Shown piece by piece: positions 1 through 15,181 of a DNA stretch of 20,977 nt. The position numbers and the translations under genes were made by a program. The stretch comes from Armatimonadota bacterium (GTDB taxonomy: Bacteria > Armatimonadota > SYMT01): contig JBKBRF010000074.1 in the NCBI GenBank assembly GCA_046292385.1, positions 1-20,977 on the forward strand, read 5' to 3'. The notes beneath the pieces are model-generated. The model was not told where the DNA came from. It ran no database searches and worked only from the letters and a program-made list of their open reading frames with translations. The first letter of the stretch is position 1, and each line of letters opens with the position of its first letter.

Positions 1-1
1 G

Positions 2-88
2 TTTGAAGATGGGAAACGCACCAAGTGCCTGGCGGCGATGAGCCGCGAGCGGGCAGCGGAACGCGAGTGGGAGAAGGTCGCCGCCTGA
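2..88 (+). CDS. Possible 3' end of a gene entering from the left edge (…FEDGKRTKCLAAMSRERAAEREWEKVAA*)
   Basis: Open frame from base 2 to TGA at 86-88, followed by AT-richer non-coding-looking sequence; too short to identify. Confidence 0.3.
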   Translation, partial: FEDGKRTKCLAAMSRERAAEREWEKVAA

Positions 89-297
89 TCCGCTTTTACA
101 CACCTATTGACAAGAGCTCCGGACCACCCGTTATCCATAGGTAACGAAACCGTCTGTTCCTCATCCGGAAGAAGTGAGGTGTGTCCCGTCTCTGGAGTAC
201 GCGGCTCCTTCACATCTTCGTGGGTATAACGGGTTATCCGCTTCTGGGACTCGGAGCGATCAGACTTCGCCATCAAGAACTTCTCCTGCGTTGATCC

Positions 298-3024
298 TTA
301 AGCGCTAGTAGGGACGGAAGGTGCGGATCGGCAGATGCCGGCCATGTCACACGTGCTGCACTTACCGCACCAGGAAGGTAGGGGTAATAGCTGATTCTGC
401 CGGAGCCGATCTCCAGCAGTAGTGACCGCTTTCACGGTCTGGGTGATCAGGTTCTGGTCTACAAGCTCACGAACCGAGCCCCCGTGATCAAGGTTGTGGA
501 TCTCGATCAGATCTGGGTGCCCGCCGAAGCGCTGCTCGTACCCCATCGCGTAAACGTGGAGTTGCATTCGCGTGACATCCTCAGGCTGGGCGCGCTCCAC
601 AGACTTGAAGTCAACTACGGCGACCTCGTCGGTCTCTACCTTTTTAATCAGGTCGATGCGGCCGTGGACCAGGATCCCGCCGGGTAGCGTGATCTCCACC
701 ACCTCCTCTACGTGGACCACCCGCTTGAGAGCGGGTCCGTTCTCGCGAAGGTAGAGCCCCAGTGCTTTCTCTGCCGAGCTACGGAGCTGTGCTTCCAGCT
801 CGGGATAGGCAAACCGCACGTGAAGGTGGGTGTCGAGCAGTTCCGGAATGTCTCTCTCCGAGAGCTCGTCTCCATTTAGAGCCCGACGGTGGACCTCCGC
901 TAGAGCGTTGTGGAGAGAGCGGCCGTAGCCGAGCGCCTCGTGAAGGGGGGCGTTGAAGCCGTAAAGGAAGCGGAGCTTGAACTGGTAGGGGCACTCGAAG
1001 AAATACTTGAGCTCGCTGAATGAGAGCTCCACGTTCACGAGGGGTACTCGCGGCTGCGGCTCCAGCTTGGGTCCGGGACATGACGGGGTCTCACGGGTGA
1101 GGAACTGCGGACAACGGGTCAGTTCTTCCCAGAACGCGGAAGGCCTTCGGTAAAGCTGATTGCCGGCATCGGGCGCCCACGAGCAGAAGAGATACTTTTC
1201 ACTGCGGGTCAGCGCTACGTAGAAGAGACGGCGCTCGTCCTCCACGGAGCTATCGAAGCGGTCCGCGTTTCGGATCCCGTGGCGCGGGAGGTGCTTCCAG
1301 ATCGCGTTGAACTGCTTTCGCCCGGGGAAGCGGTTTTTCTGCAGGCACGGAAGGAAGACGACCGGGTACTCCATTCCTTTCGACTGGTGGACCGTCATCA
1401 GCCGAACCGCGTCGGGCTGAGCGTAGGCGACATCCTGTCCGCCTTCCGGGTAGTAACCCGGCGCCTTGTAGCGAAGGAAGTCGACGAAGGACCGGTACTT
1501 CTCCTCGGGTCGGCTCTTGAAGTGGATCTCTTCGTAATCTGAGATCACCTGGCTGAACTTGCCCAGGTTGTAGTAGACCACTTCGCCACGGCCATCCGGG
1601 ACGCGTTCCTCTCGGAGCTGAACCGCTTCGAGAAAGTCGAGGTAGGTGCGCTGCAGGTTGTAGGTCGAGAACCGCTTTCCGGCCTCAAAGCCCCGTCTCC
1701 CTTCCAGCGTCGCGATTCCACGGTCGAGATCTGCCTCGTTGAGACCGAGTTCGGCCGCTTGCCACCGGAGCTTGACCGTCTCGGCATCAATTTCCCGCAC
1801 CATGAACTGAAAGACTGCGGCCGCCGCCTGCGCCTCGGGTGTATCGAAGAGCCCGGACATCCCGGTGACGATGTAGGGGATCCCGCGCTTCCTTAATGCC
1901 TCTACGATCGGGCCGCCGCAGTTCCGTACACTGCGGAGGAGAATGGCGCAGTCTGACCAGGACAGGCCTCTTGCCGTGCCGTTCTCCAGATACGGGGCGC
2001 CGCGAAGCGAAAGGATCCTTTCGGCGATCCACTCTGCTTCGGCTTCGGGGTCGTCGAATCGGAGCGCCAGCAGGTCCCCTCGTTCGAAGACCTGAGAGCC
2101 CCGGCTCACCATCTGCTTGGGCAGCCGGTTCGTGTTTGCCTCGACTGCCCTACGTGCGACATCCACGACGGCTGCACTACTCCGGAAGTTCGCCTCGAGA
2201 GGCCGCTGCAGCACGTTGGGATATCGCCGCGTGAAGGTGAGGATGTGCGAGACATCGCTCCCTCGCCACTGGTACACGTTCTGATCGTCATCACCCACGA
2301 CGCACAGGTTCGCGCCCAGCTCATAGAGCTGCCGCACCAACATCTCCTGAACCGGGTTGACATCCTGATACTCGTCAACGGTCAGATACTTCACCCGGTC
2401 CGAGAGAGCCGAGCGTAACTCCGCGTTGGTCTGAATCTCCACGACGGCCCGGAGCAGGATCTCGTCATAGTCGAGGTACCCGTGCTGGTCCAGGAGCGCC
2501 TGGTAGGATTCCAGCGCCGCCCGCGCTGGGTGATCCGCGAGGACCTCGGGATCCGCGTCGGCCCCTCTGAGCATCCCCAGGATTCCGGTGAAGAGGCGGG
2601 TGTCCAACCATCGTCGTAGGCCGAGGGAGTGCATTCCGCACTGGCGGTAGTACCGGTCGATGAAGAGCTGCTGCTTCACCTCATCCAGGATGTCGCACTT
2701 CAGATACCGATAGAGGTAGCGCTGCAGCAGGTCGAGACAGAAGCCGTGGATCGTGCCCACATACATCCCCGCGAGACCTTCAACGTGGCCGAACTCCGCT
2801 TCGTGGAGCCGCGAAATGCGGTCCTTGAGTTCCGCTGCCGCCTTCTCGGTGAACGTGAAGGCGACGATGTTCTCGGGAGTGATCCCATTTGCGGCCTGGC
2901 TCTTCAGAATGTGGATGATGCGGGCGGAGACGACACGGGTCTTGCCGGAGCCGGCACACGCCACGATCTGCAGATTCCGGTCAATACTCTCGATCGCTTC
3001 TCGCTGCTGCGGTGTGTGGCTCAT
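298..3024 (-). CDS. UvrD/PcrA-like SF1 DNA helicase fused to a C-terminal PD-(D/E)XK (RecB/AddB/Cas4-like) nuclease with 4 Cys
   Basis: Helicase motifs TPQQREAI, ACAGSGKT, FTFTEKAAAELKDR, GTIHGFC, VDEYQD, VGDDDQNVYQWRGS, LEANFRS, MTVHQSKGMEY, ERRLFYVALTRS. Nuclease motifs ECPYQF, GRIDLI, VVDFKS, QLHVY, CSTCDMAGIC. Confidence 0.93.
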   Translation of the reverse strand: MSHTPQQREAIESIDRNLQIVACAGSGKTRVVSARIIHILKSQAANGITPENIVAFTFTEKAAAELKDRISRLHEAEFGHVEGLAGMYVGTIHGFCLDLLQRYLYRYLKCDILDEVKQQLFIDRYYRQCGMHSLGLRRWLDTRLFTGILGMLRGADADPEVLADHPARAALESYQALLDQHGYLDYDEILLRAVVEIQTNAELRSALSDRVKYLTVDEYQDVNPVQEMLVRQLYELGANLCVVGDDDQNVYQWRGSDVSHILTFTRRYPNVLQRPLEANFRSSAAVVDVARRAVEANTNRLPKQMVSRGSQVFERGDLLALRFDDPEAEAEWIAERILSLRGAPYLENGTARGLSWSDCAILLRSVRNCGGPIVEALRKRGIPYIVTGMSGLFDTPEAQAAAAVFQFMVREIDAETVKLRWQAAELGLNEADLDRGIATLEGRRGFEAGKRFSTYNLQRTYLDFLEAVQLREERVPDGRGEVVYYNLGKFSQVISDYEEIHFKSRPEEKYRSFVDFLRYKAPGYYPEGGQDVAYAQPDAVRLMTVHQSKGMEYPVVFLPCLQKNRFPGRKQFNAIWKHLPRHGIRNADRFDSSVEDERRLFYVALTRSEKYLFCSWAPDAGNQLYRRPSAFWEELTRCPQFLTRETPSCPGPKLEPQPRVPLVNVELSFSELKYFFECPYQFKLRFLYGFNAPLHEALGYGRSLHNALAEVHRRALNGDELSERDIPELLDTHLHVRFAYPELEAQLRSSAEKALGLYLRENGPALKRVVHVEEVVEITLPGGILVHGRIDLIKKVETDEVAVVDFKSVERAQPEDVTRMQLHVYAMGYEQRFGGHPDLIEIHNLDHGGSVRELVDQNLITQTVKAVTTAGDRLRQNQLLPLPSWCGKCSTCDMAGICRSAPSVPTSA

Positions 3025-3053
3025 TGGGTGTTCCGAGCTTTACCGGGCCGTGG

Positions 3054-3224
3054 TCTCTACCGTGACCCCGGACGTTCAAAGCTGCCTGTCGGGGCGGCGG
3101 AATGCTTGGGCCACAAGCGGTTACTTGTACGTCCGCTTGCTTTCTACCTCCGTGGAGATTTCGTGGAGGTGAGTAGGGGCAACGGCGGCTAGTCTCCACA
3201 GTGCAGCGGGGGGCGCGGTAGAGG
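3054..3224 (+). ncRNA. Candidate structured RNA or ssDNA element (multibranch fold with possible loop-loop pairing)
   Basis: Nested inverted repeats 3055-3069/3209-3223, 3070-3079/3125-3134, 3081-3098, 3103-3119, 3137-3182; G-U pairs work on the + strand. Confidence 0.35.
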
Positions 3225-3276
3225 TGGAGCGATGGAGGTGCCCTGGTGCCCGGGAGCCAATCGCCCATGCGTGAGG

Positions 3277-4821
3277 TCAGGTAGCGCGCTTTGGGGCTCG
3301 TGGGGGACAGGTGGGTCGCGGGAGTGTCACGCGGCTGTCGCCGCTCCCGTTTACCGTTACCGCACAGGGTATCCCTGTGACCTCCAGGATCGCTGCAGAG
3401 ACCGGGATCGAGAAGCGGACGCCCCGAGCGTGGAACAGCTCCTCCATCGCTTTGCTGGGGAACTGGAGAGTCAGAGTGTCCTTCTCGAAAGAGTGCGGGA
3501 GTGCGTCAGCCACACAGGCAACCAGTGTTGCTGGGTTCCGGTGGAGGCGCTGCTGCCGCAACTGCTCCAGGATCGCAAGCCAGCGCAGCCGAATGGCGAC
3601 CAGGGCAACGGCATCCGGTCCTCGGAGCCGCTCCGGCATTTCCGCTCCGAGCATTGACGCGTAGAGAGCCCTCACCTCATCCGGCATGTCCGGGATCTCC
3701 AGTCGCTTCCCTTCGCGCATGCTCGCAAAGCTCTCCCGTAGCGTGGAGATCGGCGCGATCCCTTCTCCGAGGTAGGCCAGAAAGCCCCACGCCCACCGCC
3801 GCTGTTTGAAGCGGTAGCGGTCCGCCTGCTCTCTGGTAAGCGTGCCGCGACACCACCCCTCGTGGAGAGCGAGCAGCTCGTCCGTACTGGCTTTGAGGTA
3901 CTCCTCCAGGACTACGCGGTAGTCGTCCGGTCCTTCCTGGGACCAGAGTGAGAGCAGGTCCGGCAGCGACACGTGCGCCAGATGCTGCATCGGAGCGTGC
4001 GAACATTCGGTGTCGGCGTGCAGTCGGGCGGTGCCGTCGGGGAGGAACTCGGTCGGGCCGATGAGCCGGGGAACCGGAGGGCTCGGCGGTGATGGAGGTT
4101 CCGCCTCCATCCGGGCGGATGCGTGCCCCTCTGCAACCGCGATCAACTCCCGCAAGTAGCTAGCCTGTGCCTCGGAGAGCTGCGGGAACAGTCGGGCGAA
4201 CCTCTCGAGCGTTTCATCGCGCGAAGCTCTGCCGACGCCTGCAGCCGCTCCACGCAGCAGCCCCACGGCGAGCCGATCCCAGGCCTCGAAGAAGCCCGCA
4301 CCCCGGAGCGCTCGAATGAGTACGGGGTCCACTTGCCCGAGTACTTGCATCCACTGGCGGAGGAGCTCCTGACCCGCCTCATTTGCATCGGTGGAGTACC
4401 CGCAGCGCGCCGGTACGAGAGAACCGGCCACTCCTGATCGGCGATCTCGAAGGTCGGCGAGGACCAGGGCTCCGACCACGTCGATCACTGCGCCTGCCGC
4501 GAGAGTCTGGCTCCCGACACGAAACTGCGGCGGGGCGTCCCCACATCGAAGCAACGCCAGCAATGCCTCCGCGACAAGCACCTCTCGCTGGGCCGGGGTC
4601 AGTGCGCCAGGGCGGCGATTGCCACGAGGGTCGCGGAGGTGGGGATCGCGGAGGATCGGTTCGAACGGATGAACCAGCTCTTGCTGGACCATCTGCCGCA
4701 AGAAGTCGCAGAGCAGCACCGGCACTGAAACCGTGACCTGCTGCTCGACCGGCAGAGCCGAGTATGCGCCGGGGAGCGAGGATTGCAGGCCACCACGCAG
4801 GCTCCGCAGGAACTTTCGCAT
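3277..4821 (-). CDS. Hypothetical protein (~514 aa); C-terminal ~85 aa resemble the DnaX tau C-terminal / DnaA N-terminal type domain
   Basis: Long ORF; ATG 4821 preceded by AAGGAG. Pro-rich linker (PPSPPSPPVP). C-terminal pattern RWLAILEQL…LPHSFEKDTLTLQFPS…AAILEVTGIPCAVTV. Confidence 0.65.
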   Translation of the reverse strand: MRKFLRSLRGGLQSSLPGAYSALPVEQQVTVSVPVLLCDFLRQMVQQELVHPFEPILRDPHLRDPRGNRRPGALTPAQREVLVAEALLALLRCGDAPPQFRVGSQTLAAGAVIDVVGALVLADLRDRRSGVAGSLVPARCGYSTDANEAGQELLRQWMQVLGQVDPVLIRALRGAGFFEAWDRLAVGLLRGAAAGVGRASRDETLERFARLFPQLSEAQASYLRELIAVAEGHASARMEAEPPSPPSPPVPRLIGPTEFLPDGTARLHADTECSHAPMQHLAHVSLPDLLSLWSQEGPDDYRVVLEEYLKASTDELLALHEGWCRGTLTREQADRYRFKQRRWAWGFLAYLGEGIAPISTLRESFASMREGKRLEIPDMPDEVRALYASMLGAEMPERLRGPDAVALVAIRLRWLAILEQLRQQRLHRNPATLVACVADALPHSFEKDTLTLQFPSKAMEELFHARGVRFSIPVSAAILEVTGIPCAVTVNGSGDSRVTLPRPTCPPRAPKRAT

Positions 4822-4897
4822 GCCAGCTTCATCTCCTTCGGCGCTGCCTAGAGGCAGTAGCACGCGGCGAGCGACCCGGGACCCGGGCTGATGTTCA

Positions 4898-5584
4898 TCA
4901 GTCTTCGAGAAGCTCTCCGATTTCCACCCACTGTCGCCGTCCGACTTGTTCGAGATCCACCACCGAAGCGCGCCACACCGGCTCGTGCTCCCGGAGCATG
5001 CGGGCAGCATCCTGAAGAAAGCGCTGCGCGAGCTTCAGCGTCTCAGGTCTGTCTGGGCCGAGCTCCGACTTCACCCGGACGAACTCGCGGTTCACCAGGA
5101 TGCCGAGGGAACAATCGGTAAAGCGTGCCACGGCACTGAGGATGAACCCGGCCACAGCACCGGGGGTAGCTCCCTGAAAGTGGAGCATCGGCATTACCAC
5201 CGCACCACGCGGGTGAAGGTGTCCCTCGCAGCTCTGCACGGTTGTAAGACCCAGCTCGTTCAGGACCCGCACCAGGGCGGCGATCCGGGGTTCGAGAATC
5301 CCGAGTTGCCAGGCCTCTCCCTCTGGCCCCCGAACGGCATGGGCCAGGTAGGCGTCGGCGAACTCTTCGGGGGTGCAAGACGGACCCGTCGGAGAGAACC
5401 GACCGGCTTCGGGATCCCAGCCCTCCCGTCGATGCAGCGTGTCCAGGATGCGGGTCAGGAAGCTCCGGTTCTCCAGCGGCTCGGAGGAGAGGTCGATGAC
5501 CCCCTCGGCTCCGCCATTGGCGTAGAAGCCGTGATCCTGGAGCAACTCCCGCCATCCGTCCGGCGTCGTTTTGCCACTTCCCAC
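4898..5584 (-). CDS. Hypothetical protein with LEPRIAALVRVLNELGLTTVQSCEGH motif
   Basis: GTG start preceded by GGAGG; protein-like composition; the I-x2-LV-x2-LN-x2-G-x2-T-x2-SC-x-GH pattern is one I recall from phage/mobile-element hypothetical proteins. Confidence 0.75.
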   Translation of the reverse strand: MGSGKTTPDGWRELLQDHGFYANGGAEGVIDLSSEPLENRSFLTRILDTLHRREGWDPEAGRFSPTGPSCTPEEFADAYLAHAVRGPEGEAWQLGILEPRIAALVRVLNELGLTTVQSCEGHLHPRGAVVMPMLHFQGATPGAVAGFILSAVARFTDCSLGILVNREFVRVKSELGPDRPETLKLAQRFLQDAARMLREHEPVWRASVVDLEQVGRRQWVEIGELLED

Positions 5585-5654
5585 ACCCTTGCCTCCGTGC
5601 TGGTGCCCGGTGGTATCCCAGGCAACCTCACTCTTCGTTCACAGGAGATTCCCA

Positions 5655-7190
5655 ATGGACCTGCTCTCTGACTTCCTCGCGGACTTCAAGTCCGCCCGCC
5701 GGGTCGGCACCCCGCTCCTGGCGGTGGTGACCGCCGATCCTGCCGCGACCCAGCGCCTGCTCTCCCAGCAGCTCAAGGAAGGCACCCCGCTCCTCCAGTG
5801 GGACACGGTGGAAGGACTGGGGGCGCTGAATGAGCCGGGACGGGAAGCGCTGCTGCGGCTCTATCCCGATCCCGAGGCTCAGAAGGCCTCCGCCAATCCG
5901 CTCTACGCGCTGCAGGACGTGAAGAAGCTGGAGCCGCACTCCGTCCTCTTCCTGCACAACCTCCACCGGTTTCTGGAGGACCCCGCCGTCTGTCAGGGGC
6001 TCTGGAACCTGCGGGACTGGTTCAAGACGAGCCGCCGGATGGCGGTGGTGCTCTGCCCTTATCTGGAGCTCCCGCCGGAGCTGCAGCAGGACGTGGTCCT
6101 ACTGGAGGAGCCGCTCCCCGGAGACGACCAGCTCACCGGCATCCTGGAACGACAGTACACCGCGCTGCAGGCGAGCGTGGGGGAGAGCGTGCCCGATCCG
6201 GAGCCGGAGCTGCTGCGCCGGGGCGTGGAGCTACTGCGGGGGCTCTCGGCCTACGCGGCGGAGCAGACAACGGCGATGGCGATGACCCCGGAAGGGGTGA
6301 ACCTGGAGAAGCTGGGGAGCTTCAAGCGGCGGCAGATCGAGCAGACCCGGGGACTGACCCTCAACCGGTCCGGGGAGACCTTTGCTGACATCGGGGGTCT
6401 GGAGCAGATCAAGCGAGTCCTCCTGCGGCTTCAGCAGGGTCCGCGCCCGTTCCGAGCGGTGGTGCGGCTGGACGAGATTGAGAAGGCGCTCGCCGGGGCT
6501 TCCGGTCCGCAGGCCGACTCTTCTGGGGTCTCCCAGGACGCACTGCTGATGCTGCTTACTGCCATGGAAGACCACGGCTGGACCGGCATCCTTGCGGTAG
6601 GACATCCCGGCAGCGGGAAGAGCGTGATCTCGAAAGCGGCGGGCAATACCTTTCAGATCCCGACCCTCAACATGGATCTGGGGGGAGCGAAGGGCGGGAT
6701 CGTCGGAGAGAGCGAGGCGCGCATCCGCGCGATGCTGCGGGTGATCCACGGGATCGCCGGAGACGGGGCGCTCTTCCTCGCCACCTGCAACCGGCTGGAA
6801 ACCCTCCCTCCGGAGCTGCGGCGGCGGTTCCGGCTCGGAACGTACTTCTTCGACCTGCCGACCCGGGAGGAGCTGGACACCATCTGGAGCCTCTGCCTGC
6901 GCCAGTTCGAGCTCGACCCGGAGCAGCCCCGGCCCGAGGATACGGACTTCACCGGAGCGGACGTGCGGAACACCTGCGAGCTGGCCTACCTGATGGGCTG
7001 TTCCCTGGTGGAAGCGGCCGAGGCGATCACCCCGACTGCCCGCACCGACATGGAAGCGGTCACCCGGCTCCGTCAGTTGGCGCACGGAAAGTTCCGGTCG
7101 GCGTCCCGTCCTGGGTTCTACCGTTACCAGGAGAAACAGGTCGGGGGTGGAGAGCGGATGCTGGAGTTGGGCACGGGCGAGCGGGTGTAG
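5655..7190 (+). CDS. Ycf46-like AAA+ ATPase with degenerate N-terminal AAA domain and a C-terminal AAA domain with swapped Walker blocks
   Basis: ATG 5655 with AGGAGA RBS. Motifs LFLHNLHRFLED, LPPEL, TFADIGGLEQIK, VVRLDEIEK, GHPGSGKS, IVGESEARIR, LATCN, LPPELRRRF, FFDLP, FTGADV. Confidence 0.9.
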   Translation: MDLLSDFLADFKSARRVGTPLLAVVTADPAATQRLLSQQLKEGTPLLQWDTVEGLGALNEPGREALLRLYPDPEAQKASANPLYALQDVKKLEPHSVLFLHNLHRFLEDPAVCQGLWNLRDWFKTSRRMAVVLCPYLELPPELQQDVVLLEEPLPGDDQLTGILERQYTALQASVGESVPDPEPELLRRGVELLRGLSAYAAEQTTAMAMTPEGVNLEKLGSFKRRQIEQTRGLTLNRSGETFADIGGLEQIKRVLLRLQQGPRPFRAVVRLDEIEKALAGASGPQADSSGVSQDALLMLLTAMEDHGWTGILAVGHPGSGKSVISKAAGNTFQIPTLNMDLGGAKGGIVGESEARIRAMLRVIHGIAGDGALFLATCNRLETLPPELRRRFRLGTYFFDLPTREELDTIWSLCLRQFELDPEQPRPEDTDFTGADVRNTCELAYLMGCSLVEAAEAITPTARTDMEAVTRLRQLAHGKFRSASRPGFYRYQEKQVGGGERMLELGTGERV

Positions 7191-7306
7191 GCGCGGATCG
7201 CCGGCGCGGTATCGGTCCACCGGAGTCGTTCCGTGGATCGGCTATAGAGGACTTGCTGGGAGCCTGGTGAGATCGGGCTCCCGTTTTCACATCTGGGGAG
7301 TAAGCA

Positions 7307-8305
7307 ATGATCGCGACCGACGAGGACGTACTCACTGCGCTGACGGAGCCGCCGTTTCCGGTGGGGGAGGTTCCCGCCGAGCCTGGTGAGTCTGGTACGC
7401 GTGTACCAGATCATGTCATTTCTGATTCGCCGCTTTCTGGGAAGGCGGTCTGCCTGGCGGTGACGATCCGGGCGCTCGGCACCCGGCGCACCGTGGAGAG
7501 CAGCCGGATCGAGACCGACGCGGACCGCTCCCTGGTGCACGTGGGGAAGGAGATCCTGGATTGCCCGGAGGTCGACGCCCTGCGAGGGCAGGAAGGTCGC
7601 ATCCGGAAACATCTGCGGAGGAAAACGGTTCCGTCGCTCGTGTTTCGGCGAGGAGTGACCCTCTGTCCGCTGGCCTCGCTGGATGAGGTGGACGCCACCC
7701 TGTTCGCCTTCCAGCAGGAGCGACGGGAGATGGTCGAAGCGCTGGTGGCCGCGCTTCCTGCCCGGGTCGAGGAGGCGCGAGAGCGGCTGGGGAGTTGGTT
7801 TGATGCGTCGGATTACCCCTCTCCGGAGCGCATCCGGGCGGGGTACGAGCTGGAGTGGAGATACCTGGCGGCGGCAGTACCGGGCTCTCTGAAGACGTTC
7901 CGACGCGACATCTACGAGCGGGAGCAGGAGAAGATCGAGGAACTGTACCGGAAGGAATGGGAGTATGTGCGCCAGTGCCTGCGCCTGGAACTGAACGCTC
8001 TGGTGGAGCACCTGGCCGAACGGCTTACTCCCACGGCCACGGGCGAGAAGAAGGTGTTCAAATCGTCGACCGTGACCGAGCTGCTCGACTGGATCCGGAG
8101 CTTCGACCCGCGTAACCTGACCGACGACCAGGAGCTGGCCGGGACGGTGCAGCGACTGGAGCGACTGCTGCAGGGGATAGACCCGGAGACCCTGCGAAAA
8201 TCTGAGAGCGCCCGAAATCTGATCCGGGGTGGCCTGGACGTGGTGCGAACCAGCCTGACGGCGCAGATCGTCTCCGTAGAACGAGCATACGATTTCGGGG
8301 ACTGA
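7307..8305 (+). CDS. DUF3150-like helical protein of mobile elements
   Basis: ATG 7307 with GGGGAG RBS; helical charged protein with LG-x2-FD-x2-DYP and GEKKVFKSSTV patterns; sits directly after an AAA ATPase. Family assignment is from memory. Confidence 0.65.
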   Translation: MIATDEDVLTALTEPPFPVGEVPAEPGESGTRVPDHVISDSPLSGKAVCLAVTIRALGTRRTVESSRIETDADRSLVHVGKEILDCPEVDALRGQEGRIRKHLRRKTVPSLVFRRGVTLCPLASLDEVDATLFAFQQERREMVEALVAALPARVEEARERLGSWFDASDYPSPERIRAGYELEWRYLAAAVPGSLKTFRRDIYEREQEKIEELYRKEWEYVRQCLRLELNALVEHLAERLTPTATGEKKVFKSSTVTELLDWIRSFDPRNLTDDQELAGTVQRLERLLQGIDPETLRKSESARNLIRGGLDVVRTSLTAQIVSVERAYDFGD

Positions 8306-8329
8306 CGTACCCCACGGCCGTACTTCCGG

Positions 8330-8647
8330 TTACGGAGCCGGATGGAGGAGCGATCGGTCGACAGCGTCTACGTCACCTCCATGGCTGCCATCCAGCAGGT
8401 CCCCGGCATACAGCGCCGCCCCGGGGTGGGGCGGCTTCAGGCGGACTATGGGCGGAGGTACGACTCCGGCGTCATGGGTGAAATCCATCTCCCGTAGCTC
8501 CCAGACCTCGCCGGTCTTCCGGTGCCGGTATTGCGGGTGCTCCGGGTCGAGCCGTCCCGCCAAGACGCGAAGCACCGCGAGAGTGGTGAACGGTGTTTCC
8601 GGTTCCGGGGAGATCACCTCGACGGTCGTGACGTGGTGGGTATTCAT
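8330..8647 (-). CDS. Small hypothetical protein (105 aa)
   Basis: ATG with upstream GAAGGGG; fills the gap between convergent genes without overlap. Confidence 0.55.
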   Translation of the reverse strand: MNTHHVTTVEVISPEPETPFTTLAVLRVLAGRLDPEHPQYRHRKTGEVWELREMDFTHDAGVVPPPIVRLKPPHPGAALYAGDLLDGSHGGDVDAVDRSLLHPAP

Positions 8648-8834
8648 TGCGATGGTGCACCCCTTCTCGGGAGCTATGGCGTGGAATAGCTAATACCGCA
8701 CAGATCACGGAGAGTTATTTCCGTAGCCACGGTGAATTCGTGCCTGGCAGAGGGAGTTAATGCGACACAAATAGATCTGGTTCTTTCTAGATCCGTTAAT
8801 GGCCGCCGCCTCCCTTCTCCCTGGTGCTCCTGGT

Positions 8835-10319
8835 CTATAGGTCCTTCCTCTCCAGTTCGGTCGGGATGCCCTGATCCATCGCCTCTGCTTGTATTTCACG
8901 GCCGATCCTGTGGATCTGACGCTCGCGCTCTGCACGATCGGTACTCCGGAGGATCACCCCATCGTGGAGCCAGGCCAGGATGCGCAGGTCTTTCTCCTCT
9001 CGAATAACGTGCCACAGTTTCCGCATCAGCCGGAGCTCGTAGCTCTGCGTTTGCTGGGAGAGGAGTGAGCGGACCGACCTCTGCGATCGGTTCGGTAGCG
9101 CGATCCACCGGCCGAATGCATCGCGAACCCCATCCTCGGCCCGAACGCGCTGCATGGCCGATTTGCGGGCTTCCAGCAGTTCCTCGATCTGCGGTAGGTG
9201 CTCGAACTCGCGGGCCTTACTCTCTCCGATGCCGGGCTCGGCAGCGGTGCCACACGCCAGGCGCTGGCGGATCTTGCCCATGTTCCCCCCGAACAGGATC
9301 GAATAGATCGAGATCTTCAGGATCGGTTTGCGGTCCGTAACCCCAAGCGCGTCCAACAGGTATTCCCAGATCGACCAGCCCTCACCCAGACGGCGCTGCA
9401 GGTCGGTCAGTCCCCACAGCTTTGAGACGATCGCCAGCTGGCAGGACCGGAGGTCCAGCTGGATCGCTCCCCGGAACAGCATGGCGCGTAGCTCCCGGGG
9501 TAGCTGGTTCACGCTGAGGGTGGCCGGGTAGATCCGTACGGAGTTCTCCACCGGTCGGTAGAGCACGCGGGGGGCCTGGGCGGTGCGCAGCATGATCTGG
9601 GCCGCCAGCTGCAGTCGGCGCCGGTCCCGGTCGGTCTCTCTCGGCATCTGGAGGATCTCCGCTCGCACGGACCCCCAGTTCGCCCGGAGCACCCGGTTGA
9701 ATGCGTGCAGGGGCTGCGCGTTCAGAAACTCCACCAGCTCCCGAGCGGGATGGTCTGTCAGGAGGGGCGCGGCGTCCGCCAACAACTCGTGTTCCCGCGC
9801 GCGCAGTTGGCTGTCCCGGGAACCGGCGGCCATCCGCCTGCCGGTGACCCAATCCACCAGCTCCGTCGGTCTTGTGAACTCCTCCGGGATCTCGTGGGCC
9901 AGGAGGTTCAGCAGCTCGGTGGGAAACTCCGGTTCGACCGTGCGGGCGAGACCTCGCTCGTGGTCGTATGGCCGTTCGTGGAGGGGGAGCACCTGCTCCT
10001 CAAACTCGCGAAGTCGCCGGCCGGAGCGGAAGCCCCCGGAGTGGGGGTGAATGTTCCACATGGCAGCGAGGGTGGCGTGTGGCACGATCAAGCGGCCAGT
10101 CAGCTCCTCCCGGTAGCTGCTAGTGAGGAGATATTGGAGCAGTTGCCGGTTGGCTGTCGCTGGTGGTTCCTCTCCCGCCAGGGCCGGGTAGAGTTGGAGC
10201 ACTCGCTCCCGGGTGGACGGCTGCAGCAGCAGCGGATCGAGCGAGAACGTGGCGGCGGCAACCCTTGCCTGGGCAGGGTCGATGGTGGGGGCATCGGCCC
10301 CCGTCTGCGGGTCGTACAT
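8835..10319 (-). CDS. Compact family-A-like nucleotide polymerase (TV-Pol-like), no recognisable exonuclease domains
   Basis: Motifs in PolA order: VRIYP…VNQLPRELR, motif A IQLDLRSCQLAI, motif B RKPILKISIYSILFGG, DAFGR, QQTQSYE, motif C ILAWLHDGVIL. RBS GAGAGGA. Confidence 0.75.
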   Translation of the reverse strand: MYDPQTGADAPTIDPAQARVAAATFSLDPLLLQPSTRERVLQLYPALAGEEPPATANRQLLQYLLTSSYREELTGRLIVPHATLAAMWNIHPHSGGFRSGRRLREFEEQVLPLHERPYDHERGLARTVEPEFPTELLNLLAHEIPEEFTRPTELVDWVTGRRMAAGSRDSQLRAREHELLADAAPLLTDHPARELVEFLNAQPLHAFNRVLRANWGSVRAEILQMPRETDRDRRRLQLAAQIMLRTAQAPRVLYRPVENSVRIYPATLSVNQLPRELRAMLFRGAIQLDLRSCQLAIVSKLWGLTDLQRRLGEGWSIWEYLLDALGVTDRKPILKISIYSILFGGNMGKIRQRLACGTAAEPGIGESKAREFEHLPQIEELLEARKSAMQRVRAEDGVRDAFGRWIALPNRSQRSVRSLLSQQTQSYELRLMRKLWHVIREEKDLRILAWLHDGVILRSTDRAERERQIHRIGREIQAEAMDQGIPTELERKDL

Positions 10320-10559
10320 CGAGTCATCCTCTCTGGCCGGGTGTCCAGATCGTGCAGCTCTCCCGGCCTCACAAAATCAGGTGGTCAATTCGGGCTGGCG
10401 TGCCTGTAACCGGTACGCTGGTGATTGCGGTTACAGTTGAGCTTGTCCGCCGAGTTCGGGCGGGTGGAATCAGGTAAGATGCTTCGGACGGTGGGAGCGG
10501 AAGTTCCCCCAGTTCTTCGCTTCCTCATTCTTAGAATCAAAAGTTACACGCGGAACATG

Positions 10560-11609
10560 TCATCCTCTCCGCAGCAGCAGGCTCCGCCCAGCCCAGAGTT
10601 CGGACCTGCTCTCCTGTTCGGAGACAAGCTCCCCACCCAGATTTGCGAGCACAACCCCCAGGCAATCCGGGTTCAGGATCCGGAGGTGCTGCGTCGCACC
10701 CGTCTGCTCTTCAAGACCGCGTGATGCGGCATAGCGCATCCTACCGTCTGGCCGCACGGCAGCTGCCTGGAACAGGTTCCGGCGCATGTATCCGGCCAGG
10801 CGCAGGGGGTCGGCCTTCGCAGGATCTCCAGGGTGGATGAACCCCTCGCCCCAGGTCTGCTGGAGTAACTCCTGGTCCAGATCCTCGGCGGTGGCCGCGT
10901 GAATATGCAGCGCGGGTTTCCCTTCCGGACAGGTGCGCTTCTCATGGGGCGCACCAATCGCCAGGTAGGGAACACGCCTCTCCAGGCGGTAGTTCAGTCT
11001 TCTCCAGAACCGGGTCAGATGGTCGGACATTACGTTCCAGTCGGAGACAGGTTCACTGAACGTGAGGGTCCACAGAATGCCCAGGTCATTCGCCAGGATC
11101 TTACGAAAGAGCGTGCCGGCGGCCTTACGATCTCCCTGGTCTCGGTAGGAGTCCCGATCCCGAGTGATAGGCTGTGTACGCGCACGTGGTGTTAGATACC
11201 AGCCCCGGTAACCGTAGTAGACGGAGGTGTAGTTTCCCAGGATGCGGATGCTTACATTACGCCAGTCATCCGCCACGCGAATACGTTCATCCAGATCTGC
11301 GGGAGCTACATTCGTGTCTGGTAACCCGGCTAGTGTCTCGACCAGCTCATCCGTCCCGGTAGGCGGTTCCGGTAGAAGTATTCGGCCTCCAGATTTCGGG
11401 TGAGTCCACCGTAGAGTAGAACCTTTGGAACCAGTCCCATACGTGGGGTACAGGCTCTCGTGATTACGGATTCCCGAATGCGGGCTTCTGTATATTTCGT
11501 CGTAACTCTCCTCACTTATCGAGTAAGGGGAGCTCTCCTCCGCGACTGCAAAGGGGTCGGCTTCCAGCTCGGGGAGCCAGGCGTCATCCAGTAGCTCGGT
11601 CTCGTACAT
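10560..11609 (-). CDS. Rolling-circle replication initiator-like HUH endonuclease
   Basis: Motif I LWTLTF, helix FWRRL, motif II LHIHA, WGEGF, motif III LAGYMRRNL, RY-x2-SRGL. ATG 11609 preceded by GGAGAG. Confidence 0.8.
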   Translation of the reverse strand: MYETELLDDAWLPELEADPFAVAEESSPYSISEESYDEIYRSPHSGIRNHESLYPTYGTGSKGSTLRWTHPKSGGRILLPEPPTGTDELVETLAGLPDTNVAPADLDERIRVADDWRNVSIRILGNYTSVYYGYRGWYLTPRARTQPITRDRDSYRDQGDRKAAGTLFRKILANDLGILWTLTFSEPVSDWNVMSDHLTRFWRRLNYRLERRVPYLAIGAPHEKRTCPEGKPALHIHAATAEDLDQELLQQTWGEGFIHPGDPAKADPLRLAGYMRRNLFQAAAVRPDGRMRYAASRGLEEQTGATQHLRILNPDCLGVVLANLGGELVSEQESRSELWAGRSLLLRRG

Positions 11610-11879
11610 CGCTGCGCTCTCCGGCGGCAACCTCCGTCTCGCAGATCCCGCTCGGGGACCCGATCGACGGAGTAGCCGCCCGGTCGAGGCAGGCACGGCA
11701 GCAGCCCGGCACACGCACGAAGACGAAGCCCCCCTGATCCTGGTCACGCCAGAACACAGGGGACAGGTCTACCCGGGTACAGGGGCGCGACTCCGTGCCG
11801 CTCACCGGAGTTTCGGTGCGGTGAGGGTTGGGGTTACGCGCAGACCCCGGCGGCGCTGCTGCTGCCGTTCCTGCCGGGG

Positions 11880-12056
11880 TTAGGGCGTGGGTGCTCCGAC
11901 GACTCCCGCTGTCAGCCAGCAGGGAGCGGGGCGGGGGAGACTCGCCCGAACGGGGGAGCACCAGTGGCTCCGGGGCGAGAGAGCGGCGCTACTGGGGGCG
12001 CGAAGCGGTGGGAGTGGGCGCGGGCCACCGAGCCCGCAGTTGCATCTCAAATCCAT
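11880..12056 (-). CDS. Possible 58-aa peptide (MDLRCNCGLGGPRPLPP…)
   Basis: ATG at 12056 preceded by AAGAGGA, stop TAA at 11880-11882; co-oriented between xis and rep. Composition is not convincing. Confidence 0.25.
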   Translation of the reverse strand: MDLRCNCGLGGPRPLPPLRAPSSAALSPRSHWCSPVRASLPRPAPCWLTAGVVGAPTP

Positions 12057-12155
12057 TCCAGGTTCCTCTTAGTCCAGGCCAGAGTGTCATTCACCAGTTC
12101 AGAGAGTCAGCGTGTTGAGCCGAGCTGGGCTGCGTGGGTAACCGCTTCGTCGGCA

Positions 12156-12449
12156 CTACCGATCCGTAAGCTGCAGCAGCCGGGCAGTGAGCGCAGTGCG
12201 GGGGATCCGCAGGTGCCGTCCGATGCGGAACGCCGGGATGACCCCCTGCCGGATCGCATCGCGAACCGAGGTCTGCCCGACCTGCAGGAGATCGGCGGCC
12301 TCGCAGACCCGCAGCCACTCAGGCGGGGAAAGGGGCACCGGGGCCGGGGCGGGGTGGTAAGAAGCCGCCCGTCGGCGGCCTCTACAGCGAATCGTCATGA
12401 TCGGGCGTAGTCGTTCGTCCATGGCAGATCTCCGTGGTCTCCATTCCAT
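12156..12449 (-). CDS. Excisionase-family (HTH_17 / MerR-like) DNA-binding protein; start uncertain
   Basis: WLRVCEAADLLQVGQTSVRDAIRQGVIPAFRIGRHLRIPRTAL is a typical Xis winged HTH; divergent from the integrase operon. Confidence 0.85.
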   Translation of the reverse strand: MEWRPRRSAMDERLRPIMTIRCRGRRRAASYHPAPAPVPLSPPEWLRVCEAADLLQVGQTSVRDAIRQGVIPAFRIGRHLRIPRTALTARLLQLTDR

Positions 12450-12564
12450 CGCGTCATCACCGGTTCAGGGAGTCAGATGGGCGCCGGAGTAGTTCAGCCG
12501 GTATCTAGTCGTGCGTCGACTGCAGCACGCCACTGATGGCCTAGTAGAACGCTCCGGGCTCCAC

Positions 12565-12573
12565 TGGTATAAT
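12565..12573 (+). promoter_or_regulatory. Extended -10 promoter (TGGTATAAT) for the Zn-finger/integrase transcript
   Basis: Exact TGnTATAAT in GC-rich DNA, 10 nt before ATG 12584. Confidence 0.6.
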
Positions 12574-12583
12574 GATACACAAC

Positions 12584-13723
12584 ATGAGCGACTACTGTGA
12601 AGCAGGTTCGGAAGAAACACGCCTGGGAGCATCCGGAGATCGGAGAAATGTTCCGATCAGGGCCACCGGAATACCCTGGATGCGCCGCCGGTATAAGGTG
12701 GATGGCCCTTACCTCGTTCCGGTGCCGGAGACAGAGGCGGTGGACTATGTGCCGCTGGCGCACTACCGCGCTCCCGGAGCCGAGGAGCGGTCGCCGTATT
12801 TCGACTTTCTGGAGAGCGACGAGGAACATCTGCCCACGCTGGGGGGCCTGGCGAACCACTGGGGGCCGCTCGGCCTGCTCCAGCGCCAGGTAGTCCAGAT
12901 CCGCTACCTGCTCGGCCCGGAGCATCCGCTCCTCGCGCCGTTCGGCTTGCCGGGTACGCTGGAGGTGACGGATCTACCGCAGGGATTTGAATACGAGCCT
13001 GGGACCTACCGGCTCCGGTTCGGCAAGGGAGCCACACTCCCGGATCAGCTGATACCGGAGATCGAAGAGCGCCTGCGGGAAGCCGGTATCCGCCGCTGGT
13101 TTGATGCGGAAGCGGGGAAGGCGTGGGCGCTGGTGAGCGATCCGGTTACCGGCACGCTGCGAGAGCTACCCCTCTATCGGGTGCTCCGTCCGTACCTGCC
13201 CCAACTCTGGGCAGAGACCGGCAGGGCTCCAGAGGGGGAGGCGCTCCAGGACGGCTGGCGACTCGCTGATCTGGTGTGTGAACCGGTAGCGGAGGTTCAG
13301 CAGGCGCTCCAGGATTTCCGGAATGTCTATGCCGGGGTAGCCGGCTACACCGACGACCGCACCAGGATTTCCGAGGCGCCGGAGGCGCAGTGCCAGCTCA
13401 CTCGTGCCCTCCGGCGGGTGTCCCCCCGGGTGGCGATGATTCCCCCGGTGGACACGGCAACTGGAGACCCGGGCTGGAGGTCGGGCTGGACGACTCCGTC
13501 TCTGCTCGACTCCCTCTACACGATGCTGTGGCTCGACATCAACCGGGGCTACTACGTGCGGATTTGCGGCAATGAGAGCTGCGCGAAGGGGCTGGGACGG
13601 CGCAAGCCCTTCATCACGGATCAGCTGAAAAACCGCTTCTGCTCCACCAAGTGCTACCACGTGCAGCGGCAGCGAGAGTACCGCGAGGAGCAGAAGCAGA
13701 GACGCGCGGCTGCGCCAGACTGA
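12584..13723 (+). CDS. Protein with C-terminal CGNR-type zinc finger, probable element regulator
   Basis: C-terminal ICGNESC…FIT…RFCSTKC followed by basic helix QRQREYRE. Start moved to ATG 12584 because ATG 12572 overlaps the -10 box. Confidence 0.75.
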   Translation: MSDYCEAGSEETRLGASGDRRNVPIRATGIPWMRRRYKVDGPYLVPVPETEAVDYVPLAHYRAPGAEERSPYFDFLESDEEHLPTLGGLANHWGPLGLLQRQVVQIRYLLGPEHPLLAPFGLPGTLEVTDLPQGFEYEPGTYRLRFGKGATLPDQLIPEIEERLREAGIRRWFDAEAGKAWALVSDPVTGTLRELPLYRVLRPYLPQLWAETGRAPEGEALQDGWRLADLVCEPVAEVQQALQDFRNVYAGVAGYTDDRTRISEAPEAQCQLTRALRRVSPRVAMIPPVDTATGDPGWRSGWTTPSLLDSLYTMLWLDINRGYYVRICGNESCAKGLGRRKPFITDQLKNRFCSTKCYHVQRQREYREEQKQRRAAAPD

Positions 13724-13784
13724 GCCGCGAACGGGGATACGGAAGCTGAATTGGGCGAGAGCGACTTTGAATAGGAGAGAGACC

Positions 13785-14963
13785 ATGCGAGGGCATGTAC
13801 GGAAGCGGGCGAAGGGGTCGTGGACGCTGTGGATCGACCTGGGCTACGACGAGACCGGCAAACGTCGCCAGAAGACGTTTACGGTGAAAGGCAACAAGCG
13901 CGAGGCCGAGGCGGAGCTGAACCGGATCCTGAATGAGCTGAACACCGGCGTCTACGTGCAGCCCGCGAAGCTCACAGTGGCGGAGTACCTGGAGCGCTGG
14001 CTCACGGACTACGCCCAGACGAACGTCAGCCCTAAGACGCTCGAAAACTACACGGAGTTCGTGCGCAAACACCTGATCCCCGCGTTCGGCAACCAGTTGC
14101 TGGCGAAGCTGACGCCGCTGCACATCCAGAGCTATTACACGCGGGCGGTGCAGACCGGGAGGCGGGATGGAAAGGGCGGCCTCTCCGCCCGGACGGTCCT
14201 CCATCACCACCGGGTGCTGCGGGAGGCGCTCCAGCAGGCGGTCAAGTGGCAACTACTGGCCCGTAACCCCGCCGACGCTGTGCAGCCACCCCGTCCCGGC
14301 CGAACGGAGCTCGGCGTCCTCACCGTCGACCAGATGCGCACGCTGGTGACAGTCGTCAGGGAGACCCGGCTCTACATCCCGATCTTGCTCGCGGTCTCCA
14401 CCGGGATGCGCCGGGGGGAAATCCTGGGTTTGCGCTGGCGGGACGTGGACCTGGCCGCCGGGGTGATCTCCGTCCGCCAATCGGTTCAGCAGACCCGCTC
14501 CGGCCTTCACTTCAAGGAGCCGAAGACCCAGAAGAGCCGGCGCTCGCTCCTCCTGCCCTCGACGGTAGTGGCGGCCCTAGTTGCTCACAGACAAGCGCAG
14601 GAGCAGATCCGACAGCAAGTTGGCGCTGCCTATGACGACCGGGATCTGGTGGTGGCGGGTCCGGATGGCAAGCCGTTCTCTCCGGCCGCCTTCACCCAGG
14701 CATTCCGGCTGCTCGTGAGCCGCACAGACCTACCCCAGGTCCGGTTCCACGACCTGCGCCACAGCCACGCGACTCGGCTGTTTCAGCAGGGCACCCACCC
14801 TAAGATCGTGAGCGAGAGATTGGGTCACTCGACGGTGGGGATCACTCTTGACGTGTACTCCCACGTCCTCCCCGGAATGCAGAAGGAAGCGGTGCTCCAG
14901 ATCGACGCAGACCTGCGAGAGCCGGAAGCGGCAGACGGGGGCACACTCCCGCCAGACGGCTGA
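13785..14963 (+). CDS. int: Tyrosine recombinase/integrase (ICEBs1/phage-like) with N-terminal arm-binding domain
   Basis: RBS AGGAGA; N-terminal MRGHVRKR…GKRRQKT; catalytic TGMRRGEILGL, PKT, RFHDLRHSHAT, RLGHS, TLDVYSHV. Confidence 0.96.
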   Translation: MRGHVRKRAKGSWTLWIDLGYDETGKRRQKTFTVKGNKREAEAELNRILNELNTGVYVQPAKLTVAEYLERWLTDYAQTNVSPKTLENYTEFVRKHLIPAFGNQLLAKLTPLHIQSYYTRAVQTGRRDGKGGLSARTVLHHHRVLREALQQAVKWQLLARNPADAVQPPRPGRTELGVLTVDQMRTLVTVVRETRLYIPILLAVSTGMRRGEILGLRWRDVDLAAGVISVRQSVQQTRSGLHFKEPKTQKSRRSLLLPSTVVAALVAHRQAQEQIRQQVGAAYDDRDLVVAGPDGKPFSPAAFTQAFRLLVSRTDLPQVRFHDLRHSHATRLFQQGTHPKIVSERLGHSTVGITLDVYSHVLPGMQKEAVLQIDADLREPEAADGGTLPPDG

Positions 14964-15026
14964 GATCTCGGGCAGGTGAACGGAGTGCGGACAGCACGGT
15001 GCGTGCCTGAACCGTGCTTGCAGGCG

Positions 15027-15046
15027 CGTTAGCAATTCGTTAGCAA
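15027..15046. repeat. Tandem CGTTAGCAA x2 (11-bp period), probable integrase arm-type sites
   Basis: Copies at 15027-15035 and 15038-15046, between the int stop and the tRNA 3' end. Confidence 0.6.
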
Positions 15047-15089
15047 AACGTCCGCTCCTCGCGGTTTTCACCGTACGAGGGCGGACGTT
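15047..15089 (-). terminator. Hairpin just downstream of tRNA-Ser
   Basis: AACGTCCGC-TCCTCG…CGAGG-GCGGACGTT inverted repeat, followed on the - strand by a short T run. Confidence 0.55.
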
Positions 15090-15096
15090 CCAGGCA

Positions 15097-15181
15097 CGGA
15101 GGGAGTGGGATTCGAACCCACGGAGACTTGCGCCTCACCTGTTTTCAAGACAGGCTCCTTAAACCACTCGGACATCCCTCC
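15097..15181 (-). tRNA. tRNA-Ser (anticodon TGA), CCA not encoded
   Basis: Acceptor GGAGGGA/TCCCTCC plus discriminator G; D arm CCGAGTGGTTTAAGG; anticodon arm CCTGT-CTTGAAA-ACAGG; long variable arm; T arm GTGGG-TTCGAAT-CCCAC. Confidence 0.97.

Follow-up and report, generated by a model that had tools for sequence, protein, structure and literature searches.

A Ycf46-like AAA ATPase family of phages and prophages in which the Walker B unit precedes the Walker A motif

The locus and the motif order of the AAA protein

The stretch of DNA analysed here, referred to as the window, comprises 20,977 nucleotides of contig JBKBRF010000074.1 from an Armatimonadota bacterium (GTDB lineage Bacteria; Armatimonadota; SYMT01; assembly GCA_046292385.1). 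On its forward strand lies a gene for a two-domain protein of 511 amino acids, which is very probably a classical-clade, Ycf46-like AAA ATPase with an internally rewired second domain and a single predicted ATP site: in this domain, the strand carrying the Walker B acids is found ahead of the Walker A motif (P-loop) and not behind it. A gene for a DUF3150-like protein follows directly downstream, and both genes share the window with, among others, an integrase gene adjoining a tRNA-Ser, a gene for a rolling-circle Rep-like protein and a helicase/nuclease fusion (Table 1). The open frame of the AAA gene spans 5571-7190; the ATG at 5655 was taken as its start, in agreement with the N-termini of the homologues, and translation of 5655-7187 yields the 511 residues.

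In the translated domain 2, the motifs follow each other as FxDIGG/IGGL (residue 246), DEIEK (273), P-loop (316), GESE (351), TCN (377-379) and the arginine pair RR (390/391). VVRLDEIEK begins at nucleotide 6459 (V269) and the P-loop GHPGSGKS occupies 6600-6623 (G316-S323), exactly the positions given in a preliminary description of the window, which had been made from the sequence alone and had proposed that two blocks of one P-loop domain were exchanged, with the catalytic motifs intact. This proposal holds: the exchanged blocks are adjacent and can be delimited as residues 262-309 and 310-368, and Walker A (GxxGxGK[ST], 316-323), Walker B (VVRLDE, 269-274), the sensor-1 Asn and the arginine fingers are all present. 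A conventional Walker B was looked for downstream of the P-loop, and no hydrophobic strand ending in D-E was seen there; three residues separate helix 2 (352-368) from the sensor-1 strand (372-378), so that strand 4 sits right after helix 2, in the place which Walker B takes in a normal AAA protein. As to domain 1, GxxGxGK is absent from it in alignment A1 (20 sequences).

The order of the blocks is also reflected in the response of standard profile models, for which the preliminary description had foreseen a split match. Pfam AAA (PF00004) recognises the protein with 48.1 bits (gathering cut-off 21.2), but the match is divided between two stretches, and the better of them (residues 312-363) covers profile positions 1-52 of 131; the profile runs from Walker A over strand 2 and Walker B to sensor 1, whereas the protein presents strand 3, then 1, 2 and 4. 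Alignment with paraplegin pairs residues 311-362 with paraplegin 41-92 and residues 352-446 with paraplegin 125-227; it jumps from 92 to 125, and the Walker B stretch of paraplegin therefore has no counterpart at its usual place. No NCBIfam model matches the 511-residue protein. PADLOC yielded only a weak match to IetA (E 0.0041).

Table 1. Features of the window, with positions on the forward strand; fractions of 339 refer to distinct swapped-order sequences, and residues are numbered in the AAA protein
Feature	Position	Strand	Evidence and remarks
AAA gene (511-residue two-domain protein, P0001)	5655-7190, including stop	+	list of open reading frames (ORFs), translation, full-length homologues at 42-79% identity
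Domain 1, degenerate AAA-like	5655-6350 (residues 1-232)	+	without P-loop and without D-E; chain order normal; p97 D1-D2 match
Helix 0 of domain 2 with FxDIGG	6381-6434 (residues 243-260)	+	G248 in 338/339
Moved block: strand 3 with Walker B (V269-E274 = 6459-6476), conserved GDSSGVSQD loop, helix 3	6450-6581 (approximately residues 266-309)	+	match to gp60 of Rhodobacter phage RcTiptonus and to paralogue C29
Strand 1 and P-loop/Walker A, GHPGSGKS	6582-6623 (residues 310-323)	+	aligns with Walker A of paraplegin, katanin and p97
Pore-loop-1 region, KGGIVGESE	6690-6716 (residues 346-354)	+	G351 in 338/339
Strand 4 and sensor 1, ALFLATCN	6768-6791 (residues 372-379)	+	aligns with the sensor-1 strand of paraplegin and katanin
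Arginine fingers R390, R391	6822-6827	+	both invariant in A1
Helical lid with TGAD motif of classical AAA proteins	6864-7082 (residues 404-476)	+	aligned to paraplegin and p97 lids; helices in the model
C-terminal tail from R501 (R-M-L-E-L-G...)	7155-7187	+	R501 invariant in A1; pLDDT <50 at 494-511
Downstream partner gene, 332-residue, mostly helical, DUF3150-like protein ending R326-A-Y-D-F-G-D	7307-8305	+	homologue in 66/80 related loci
Tyrosine integrase	13767-14963	+	Pfam Phage_integrase E 7e-27; phrog_1 E 3.5e-83
tRNA-Ser(tga)	15097-15181	-	ARAGORN; adjoins the integrase and marks one end of the element
Rolling-circle Rep-like protein	10560-11747	-	
UvrD-helicase/PD-(D/E)XK-nuclease fusion	298-3024	-	strong GajB-type matches
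577-residue ORF	3277-5010	-	DNA polymerase III tau C-terminal domain weak and below threshold (E 1.6e-4; 22 bits, cut-off 26.2); no other family; in 0/80 related loci

The displaced Walker B unit and the predicted fold

For comparison with a relative of normal order we used gp60 of Rhodobacter phage RcTiptonus, in which IGGL (275), P-loop (311), GQSE (346), DEIDK (370) and TANR (416) succeed each other. BLASTP of the 511-residue protein against gp60 yields a single extended alignment with gaps (70-398 to 65-437), which skips both sites and does not show the transposed block, and as the full-length comparison jumps over these sites, the moved block was aligned to gp60 on its own. Residues 268-306 then align without a gap to gp60 366-403, past the P-loop and GQSE of the phage protein, with a score of 68 against 27.5±4.0 for shuffles (maximum 48; 0 of 1000 reach 68). 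In alignment A2 the gaps at the two block sites are reciprocal, the swapped proteins having their insertion before the P-loop and gp60 after helix 2. The genome of the bacterium itself contains two normal-order Ycf46-like paralogues of about 500-550 amino acids (contigs C29 and C63; L004:754-2403 and L005:688-2226, both on the minus strand), which match the 511-residue protein over 1-258, 310-368 and 373-487 and skip 259-309. A hidden Markov model (HMM) of the block (residues 262-309) finds the skipped part in the C29 paralogue at 379-417, past the Walker A of that protein (37.5 bits, E 8.5e-12). The family profile, when aligned to p97 D2, likewise maps out of sequence: 231-252 corresponds to 274-295, 300-352 to 312-364, 254-300 to 368-414 and 342-440 to 396-500. 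Judged by these alignments, what has moved is a single unit of strand plus helix, the homologue of the Walker B unit in the normal-order relatives.

A search of 5.8 billion proteins, with 8000 candidates scored, returned 565 matches, of which the best 120 are 476-601 amino acids long, share 42-79% identity with the query and cover 90-100% of it; the homologue with 79% identity is full-length. An exhaustive search of cluster representatives gave 5615 matches at E≤0.001 and 1080 at E≤1e-30, and 238 relatives were found in reference genomes. Residue conservation was counted over 339 distinct swapped-order sequences: E274, K322, G319 and N379 are found in every one of them (339/339 each), residue 273 is Asp in 320 and Glu in the other 19, R391 is kept in 338 and R390 in 332. 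This pattern argues that the catalytic site is kept by selection and that the AAA+ fold would be functional, as the preliminary description had supposed; the protein would presumably hydrolyse ATP and assemble into rings.

The upstream DEIEK could also be read as a relic, in a protein that acts as a switch or pseudo-ATPase, with ATP bound but not hydrolysed, or that makes use of other catalytic residues. The DEIEK block does lie outside its normal place, and a precedent for lost catalysis exists within the protein in domain 1, itself a degenerate AAA domain. Nevertheless, we consider this reading improbable: an invariant E274 and an acidic residue at 273 in all 339 sequences are unexpected for a relic, N379 and both arginine fingers are kept though they are relevant only to hydrolysis, the Walker B strand co-varies with strand 4 in the manner of an intact site (see below), and no alternative acidic pair follows the P-loop.

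The fold was predicted with AlphaFold2 on alignment A1, with a mean predicted local distance difference test value (pLDDT) of 86.2 and a predicted template modelling score (pTM) of 0.78; values of pLDDT below 50 are confined to residues 282-290 and 494-511. In domain 2 the model shows strands at 268-272, 310-316, 337-340, 372-378 and 396-399 and helices at 250-260, 275-283, 294-306, 322-332, 352-368 and 386-391, followed by the helices of the lid. The best structure match of the whole model in Foldseek is Rix7 (E 4.8e-13). In VIA comparisons, the whole model aligns with p97 (7lmz_C) at Z 17.5 and a root mean square deviation (rmsd) of 7.5 over 410 residues, and domain 2 aligns with p97 D2 (3cf0_A) at Z 15.2 and rmsd 3.0 over 204 residues within 232-480 of the model; some 45 residues stay unaligned, about as many as the moved block contains.

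Co-variation was assessed by mean-field direct coupling on the 339 sequences (effective number 257) over residues 236-455, comprising 23005 pairs. Strands which are neighbours in the sheet order 5-1-4-3-2 have best ranks of 12, 31 and 36 for strands 3 and 4, rank 20 for strands 1 and 5, rank 83 for 1 and 4 and rank 182 for 3 and 2; among the non-neighbours, strands 2 and 4 reach rank 911, 3 and 5 rank 927, 1 and 2 rank 1434 and 3 and 1 rank 1516. Couplings between helix 3 and helix 2 are numerous, and rank 2 is held by the pair of A268, where strand 3 starts, and A368, where helix 2 ends, two points which the chain connects in normal AAA proteins. The sheet order 5-1-4-3-2 appears to be kept in space and the geometry preserved, a conclusion which is well supported, albeit indirectly.

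The favoured explanation is that strand 3 with Walker B and helix 3, about 42 residues altogether, left their usual position behind helix 2 and now stand ahead of strand 1 and the P-loop. In the resulting chain, helix 0 would be followed by the strand-helix pairs 3, 1, 2 and 4, in this order, and then by strand 5 and the lid, with D273/E274, K322 and N379 meeting in one ATP site and R390/R391 acting on the neighbouring subunit. Helix 3 would then enter strand 1 rather than the adjacent strand 4, and helix 2 would enter strand 4 rather than the adjacent strand 3; as strands 1 and 4 as well as 3 and 4 are neighbours, each of the rewired links shifts by one strand, and, going by standard AAA topology, all crossovers would keep their hand.

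It should also be noted that several points weigh against this interpretation. The co-variation pattern is not perfectly clean, since the non-neighbouring strands 4 and 5 (373-394) reach rank 22 and strands 2 and 5 rank 317. The match of the moved block to p97 alone is weak (about 6 bits, domain E 24-44). The swapped-order sequences were all gathered by similarity to the 511-residue protein, which leaves a single origin putative. The pore loop of the preliminary description needs a correction, in that its residue is mostly aliphatic and not aromatic: position 349 is Leu in 259 of the 339 sequences, Ile in 28, Tyr in 12, Phe in 12 and His in 10, whereas the normal-order paralogues have Tyr or Phe, and this mostly aliphatic pore loop 1, in place of the aromatic residue of threading AAA motors, weakens the inference of an unfoldase. 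Finally, the predicted strand order and the proximity of the D-E pair to the P-loop rest on secondary structure, confidence values and co-variation, the last of which is blind to the difference between contacts within one subunit and contacts between subunits.

Given this blindness, one may imagine that the moved unit contributes to the ATP site of the next subunit instead of its own, yielding a domain-swapped ring interlocked by strand exchange, in which every ATP site would be assembled from three chains, with Walker B, P-loop and arginine fingers contributed by one chain each. The position of the block at the boundary between domains 1 and 2 makes such a swap geometrically conceivable. However, the monomer model keeps the block in its own domain, with a pLDDT of about 88-92 on both sides of the junctions, and the linker from helix 3 to strand 1 (306 to 310) measures some 3-5 residues, which suits an adjacent strand and hardly another subunit; we therefore regard this arrangement as very unlikely. 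Were it true, it would represent a new kind of subunit coupling in an AAA motor and would explain the retention of the order in more than 1000 protein clusters.

The internal rewiring of domain 2, which we prefer, is a property of the family. All 20 sequences of alignment A1 show the swapped order, and five block HMMs built from this alignment were used to scan 352 sequences (265 database proteins, 83 ORFs of related loci and 4 references). Walker B precedes Walker A and sensor 1 in 346 of them; three, which are normal-order references, run from Walker A over Walker B to sensor 1, and the remaining three, overlapping spurious ORFs, have no match. In a control set of 123 normal-order Ycf46-like proteins, Walker B never comes before Walker A: 109 show Walker A, Walker B and sensor 1 in this succession, 14 show Walker A and sensor 1 without a Walker B match, and none is without any match. 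Homologues sharing the order, the search for which the preliminary description had suggested, include gp103 of the isolated Tunturiibacter phage Tunturi_3, labelled 'ATPase' (36-38% identity), and proteins from complete genomes, such as two loci of Nitrospira moscoviensis (L040, L065). That an assembly artefact or a local rearrangement of one contig has produced the order is practically inconceivable, even though the window is a 21-kb contig in a draft genome of 91 contigs, since the 346 sequences stem from independent metagenomes, complete genomes and an isolated phage, the reading frame is open and the homologue with 79% identity covers the full length; assembly error, against which the preliminary description had cautioned, is thus excluded.

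An HMM of the N-terminal domain (residues 1-235) matches 122 of the 123 normal-order Ycf46-like proteins, and residues 9-258 match the C29 paralogue with E 6.4e-14, in line with the Ycf46-type relation that had been proposed at the outset. As this domain is common to the normal-order proteins, the swapped family is to be seen as a derived branch. It probably arose from a normal-order Ycf46-like ancestor, in which a tandem duplication of the part from strand 1 to helix 3 would have been followed by the loss of the two outer parts. No intermediates with two Walker B blocks were found among the 346 swapped and 123 normal proteins (best 120-150 matches per search).

Some members of both groups carry additional sequences. 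Inteins are seen within the P-loop of two swapped-order proteins (P0122, P0232) and at the sensor-1 ATCN of a third (P0230), and two normal-order homologues of 864 amino acids (P0364, P0369) carry homing-endonuclease/Hint Pfam domains.

Genomic neighbourhood and the DUF3150-like gene

The integrase beside the tRNA-Ser marks the AAA gene as cargo of an integrated element, the far end of which lies beyond the contig; regarding a second attachment site, no repeat of the tRNA-Ser end of at least 12 bases was found elsewhere in the window. Several ORFs of the element (window positions 1-15181) belong to no recognisable family. Within the host phylum the AAA gene is patchy, being present in 2 of 151 genomes including this one, and the reference genomes with relatives belong to Acidobacteriota, Nitrospirota, Planctomycetota, Armatimonadota and others, some with several copies. 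Two to four swapped-order copies per genome were seen in one Acidobacteriota metagenome-assembled genome (L051, L053, L057, L069) and in N. moscoviensis, and such multiple copies are in keeping with the presence of several related prophages. The swapped-order family is carried by phages and prophages and is abundant there. Its related loci also carry genes for SSB, Gp157/Gam-like, helicase, AEP-primase, ribonucleotide-reductase, radical-SAM, DUF6908 and DUF1257-like proteins; of 81 sources, 11 have a DUF1257-like gene, which the window lacks.

Of the neighbours in the window, the gene for the 332-residue DUF3150-like protein is the one that recurs. Its cluster is represented in 69 of the 81 sources, with the gene in the orientation of the AAA gene; homologues of each of the other nine neighbour proteins of the window are found in none of the 80 related loci. 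Pfam DUF3150 matches 13 of 22 members of this neighbour's family, the window copy not being one of them, and the Atlas clusters nearest to it carry DUF3150 and are mostly viral. A search of its model against the PDB with Foldseek gave no match at E≤0.001. Prediction of a complex between the AAA protein and its neighbour (alignments A1 and A3) scored 0.00, a value that says nothing on whether the two bind.

Both proteins end in a similar manner, their tails (7155-7187 and 8282-8302) following the pattern R-x-hydrophobic-x-hydrophobic, often with an acidic residue thereafter. The likeness of tails from the same locus amounts to a mean BLOSUM score of 4.69 against 2.43±0.72 for shuffled pairs, reached by 4 of 5000 shuffles (36 distinct pairs from 44), a figure which is only suggestive because the loci are related. 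This likeness, read from the sequences, suggests a shared docking peptide on the tails of the AAA and DUF3150-like proteins. As the function of the family we tentatively propose a ring-forming, protein-remodelling ATPase that has the DUF3150-like protein as its partner and acts while temperate phages are in their early or replication phase, the odds being somewhat against so specific a role.

Comparison with known systems

To our knowledge, textbooks, classifications and profile models all take the connectivity of the AAA+ core to be fixed. The literature covered, which did not extend to subscription journals, yielded no account of an AAA core in which Walker B comes before Walker A; in some of it the term 'permuted' is used, but for FHA domains and methylases. 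Classical AAA ATPases whose core is permuted internally and not circularly are thus apparently undescribed in print. The present case is a large natural family, which keeps every catalytic residue although two blocks of its core are swapped, and it represents a natural experiment on how much rewiring the P-loop ASCE fold tolerates, useful for studies of protein evolution as well as for design. As the swap causes standard models to yield split and partial AAA matches, phage proteins of this type are left as 'ATPase' or 'hypothetical'. The occurrence of normal and swapped paralogues in one and the same genome provides a clean pair for comparative biochemistry, and a common prophage gene pair, AAA and DUF3150-like, becomes linked to the long-orphaned Ycf46 family.

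Among the closest known systems are the normal-order Ycf46-like proteins, represented here by the C29 and C63 paralogues and by gp60. The homologues of the C63 protein bear the name 'SpoVK/Ycf46/Vps4 family AAA+-type ATPase' (JGI; COG0464-type), and this copy belongs to a highly conserved family, with 69-87% identity over its best 120 matches. With the swapped family the normal-order proteins have in common a length of about 500-570 amino acids, the degenerate N-terminal domain, the FxDIGG helix, the P-loop, GxSE, a Walker B unit of the form DEIxK...GDSGxS...MQE, the ATxN of sensor 1, the LPPEL-R-R fingers and the lid. They differ in that their Walker B unit follows helix 2, whereas it stands before strand 1 in the swapped family, where the moved block takes the place of the linker, some 15-20 residues long, that connects helix 0 to strand 1 in the normal form, and in the pore loop, with the Tyr or Phe of the paralogues against mostly Leu.

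The type II classical AAA unfoldases, namely p97/VCP, Cdc48, Rix7, NVL and Afg2, provide the best structure matches for both domains (Foldseek E about 5e-13) and display the same catalytic motifs, at a sequence identity of only 13-24%. In contrast to the protein described here, in which domain 1 lacks a P-loop and domain 2 is rewired, they possess two nucleotide-binding domains in normal order, together with an adaptor N-domain.

P-loop nucleoside triphosphatases with a non-standard order of motifs and a conserved fold are known from the circularly permuted GTPases of the YlqF/YjeQ type, in which the whole domain is permuted and new termini have been created. These belong to another class of nucleoside triphosphatases, the swapped family being AAA+ proteins of the ASCE division, and the rearrangement differs as well: here helix 0 and the lid keep the ends of the domain, and only two internal blocks between them have changed places.

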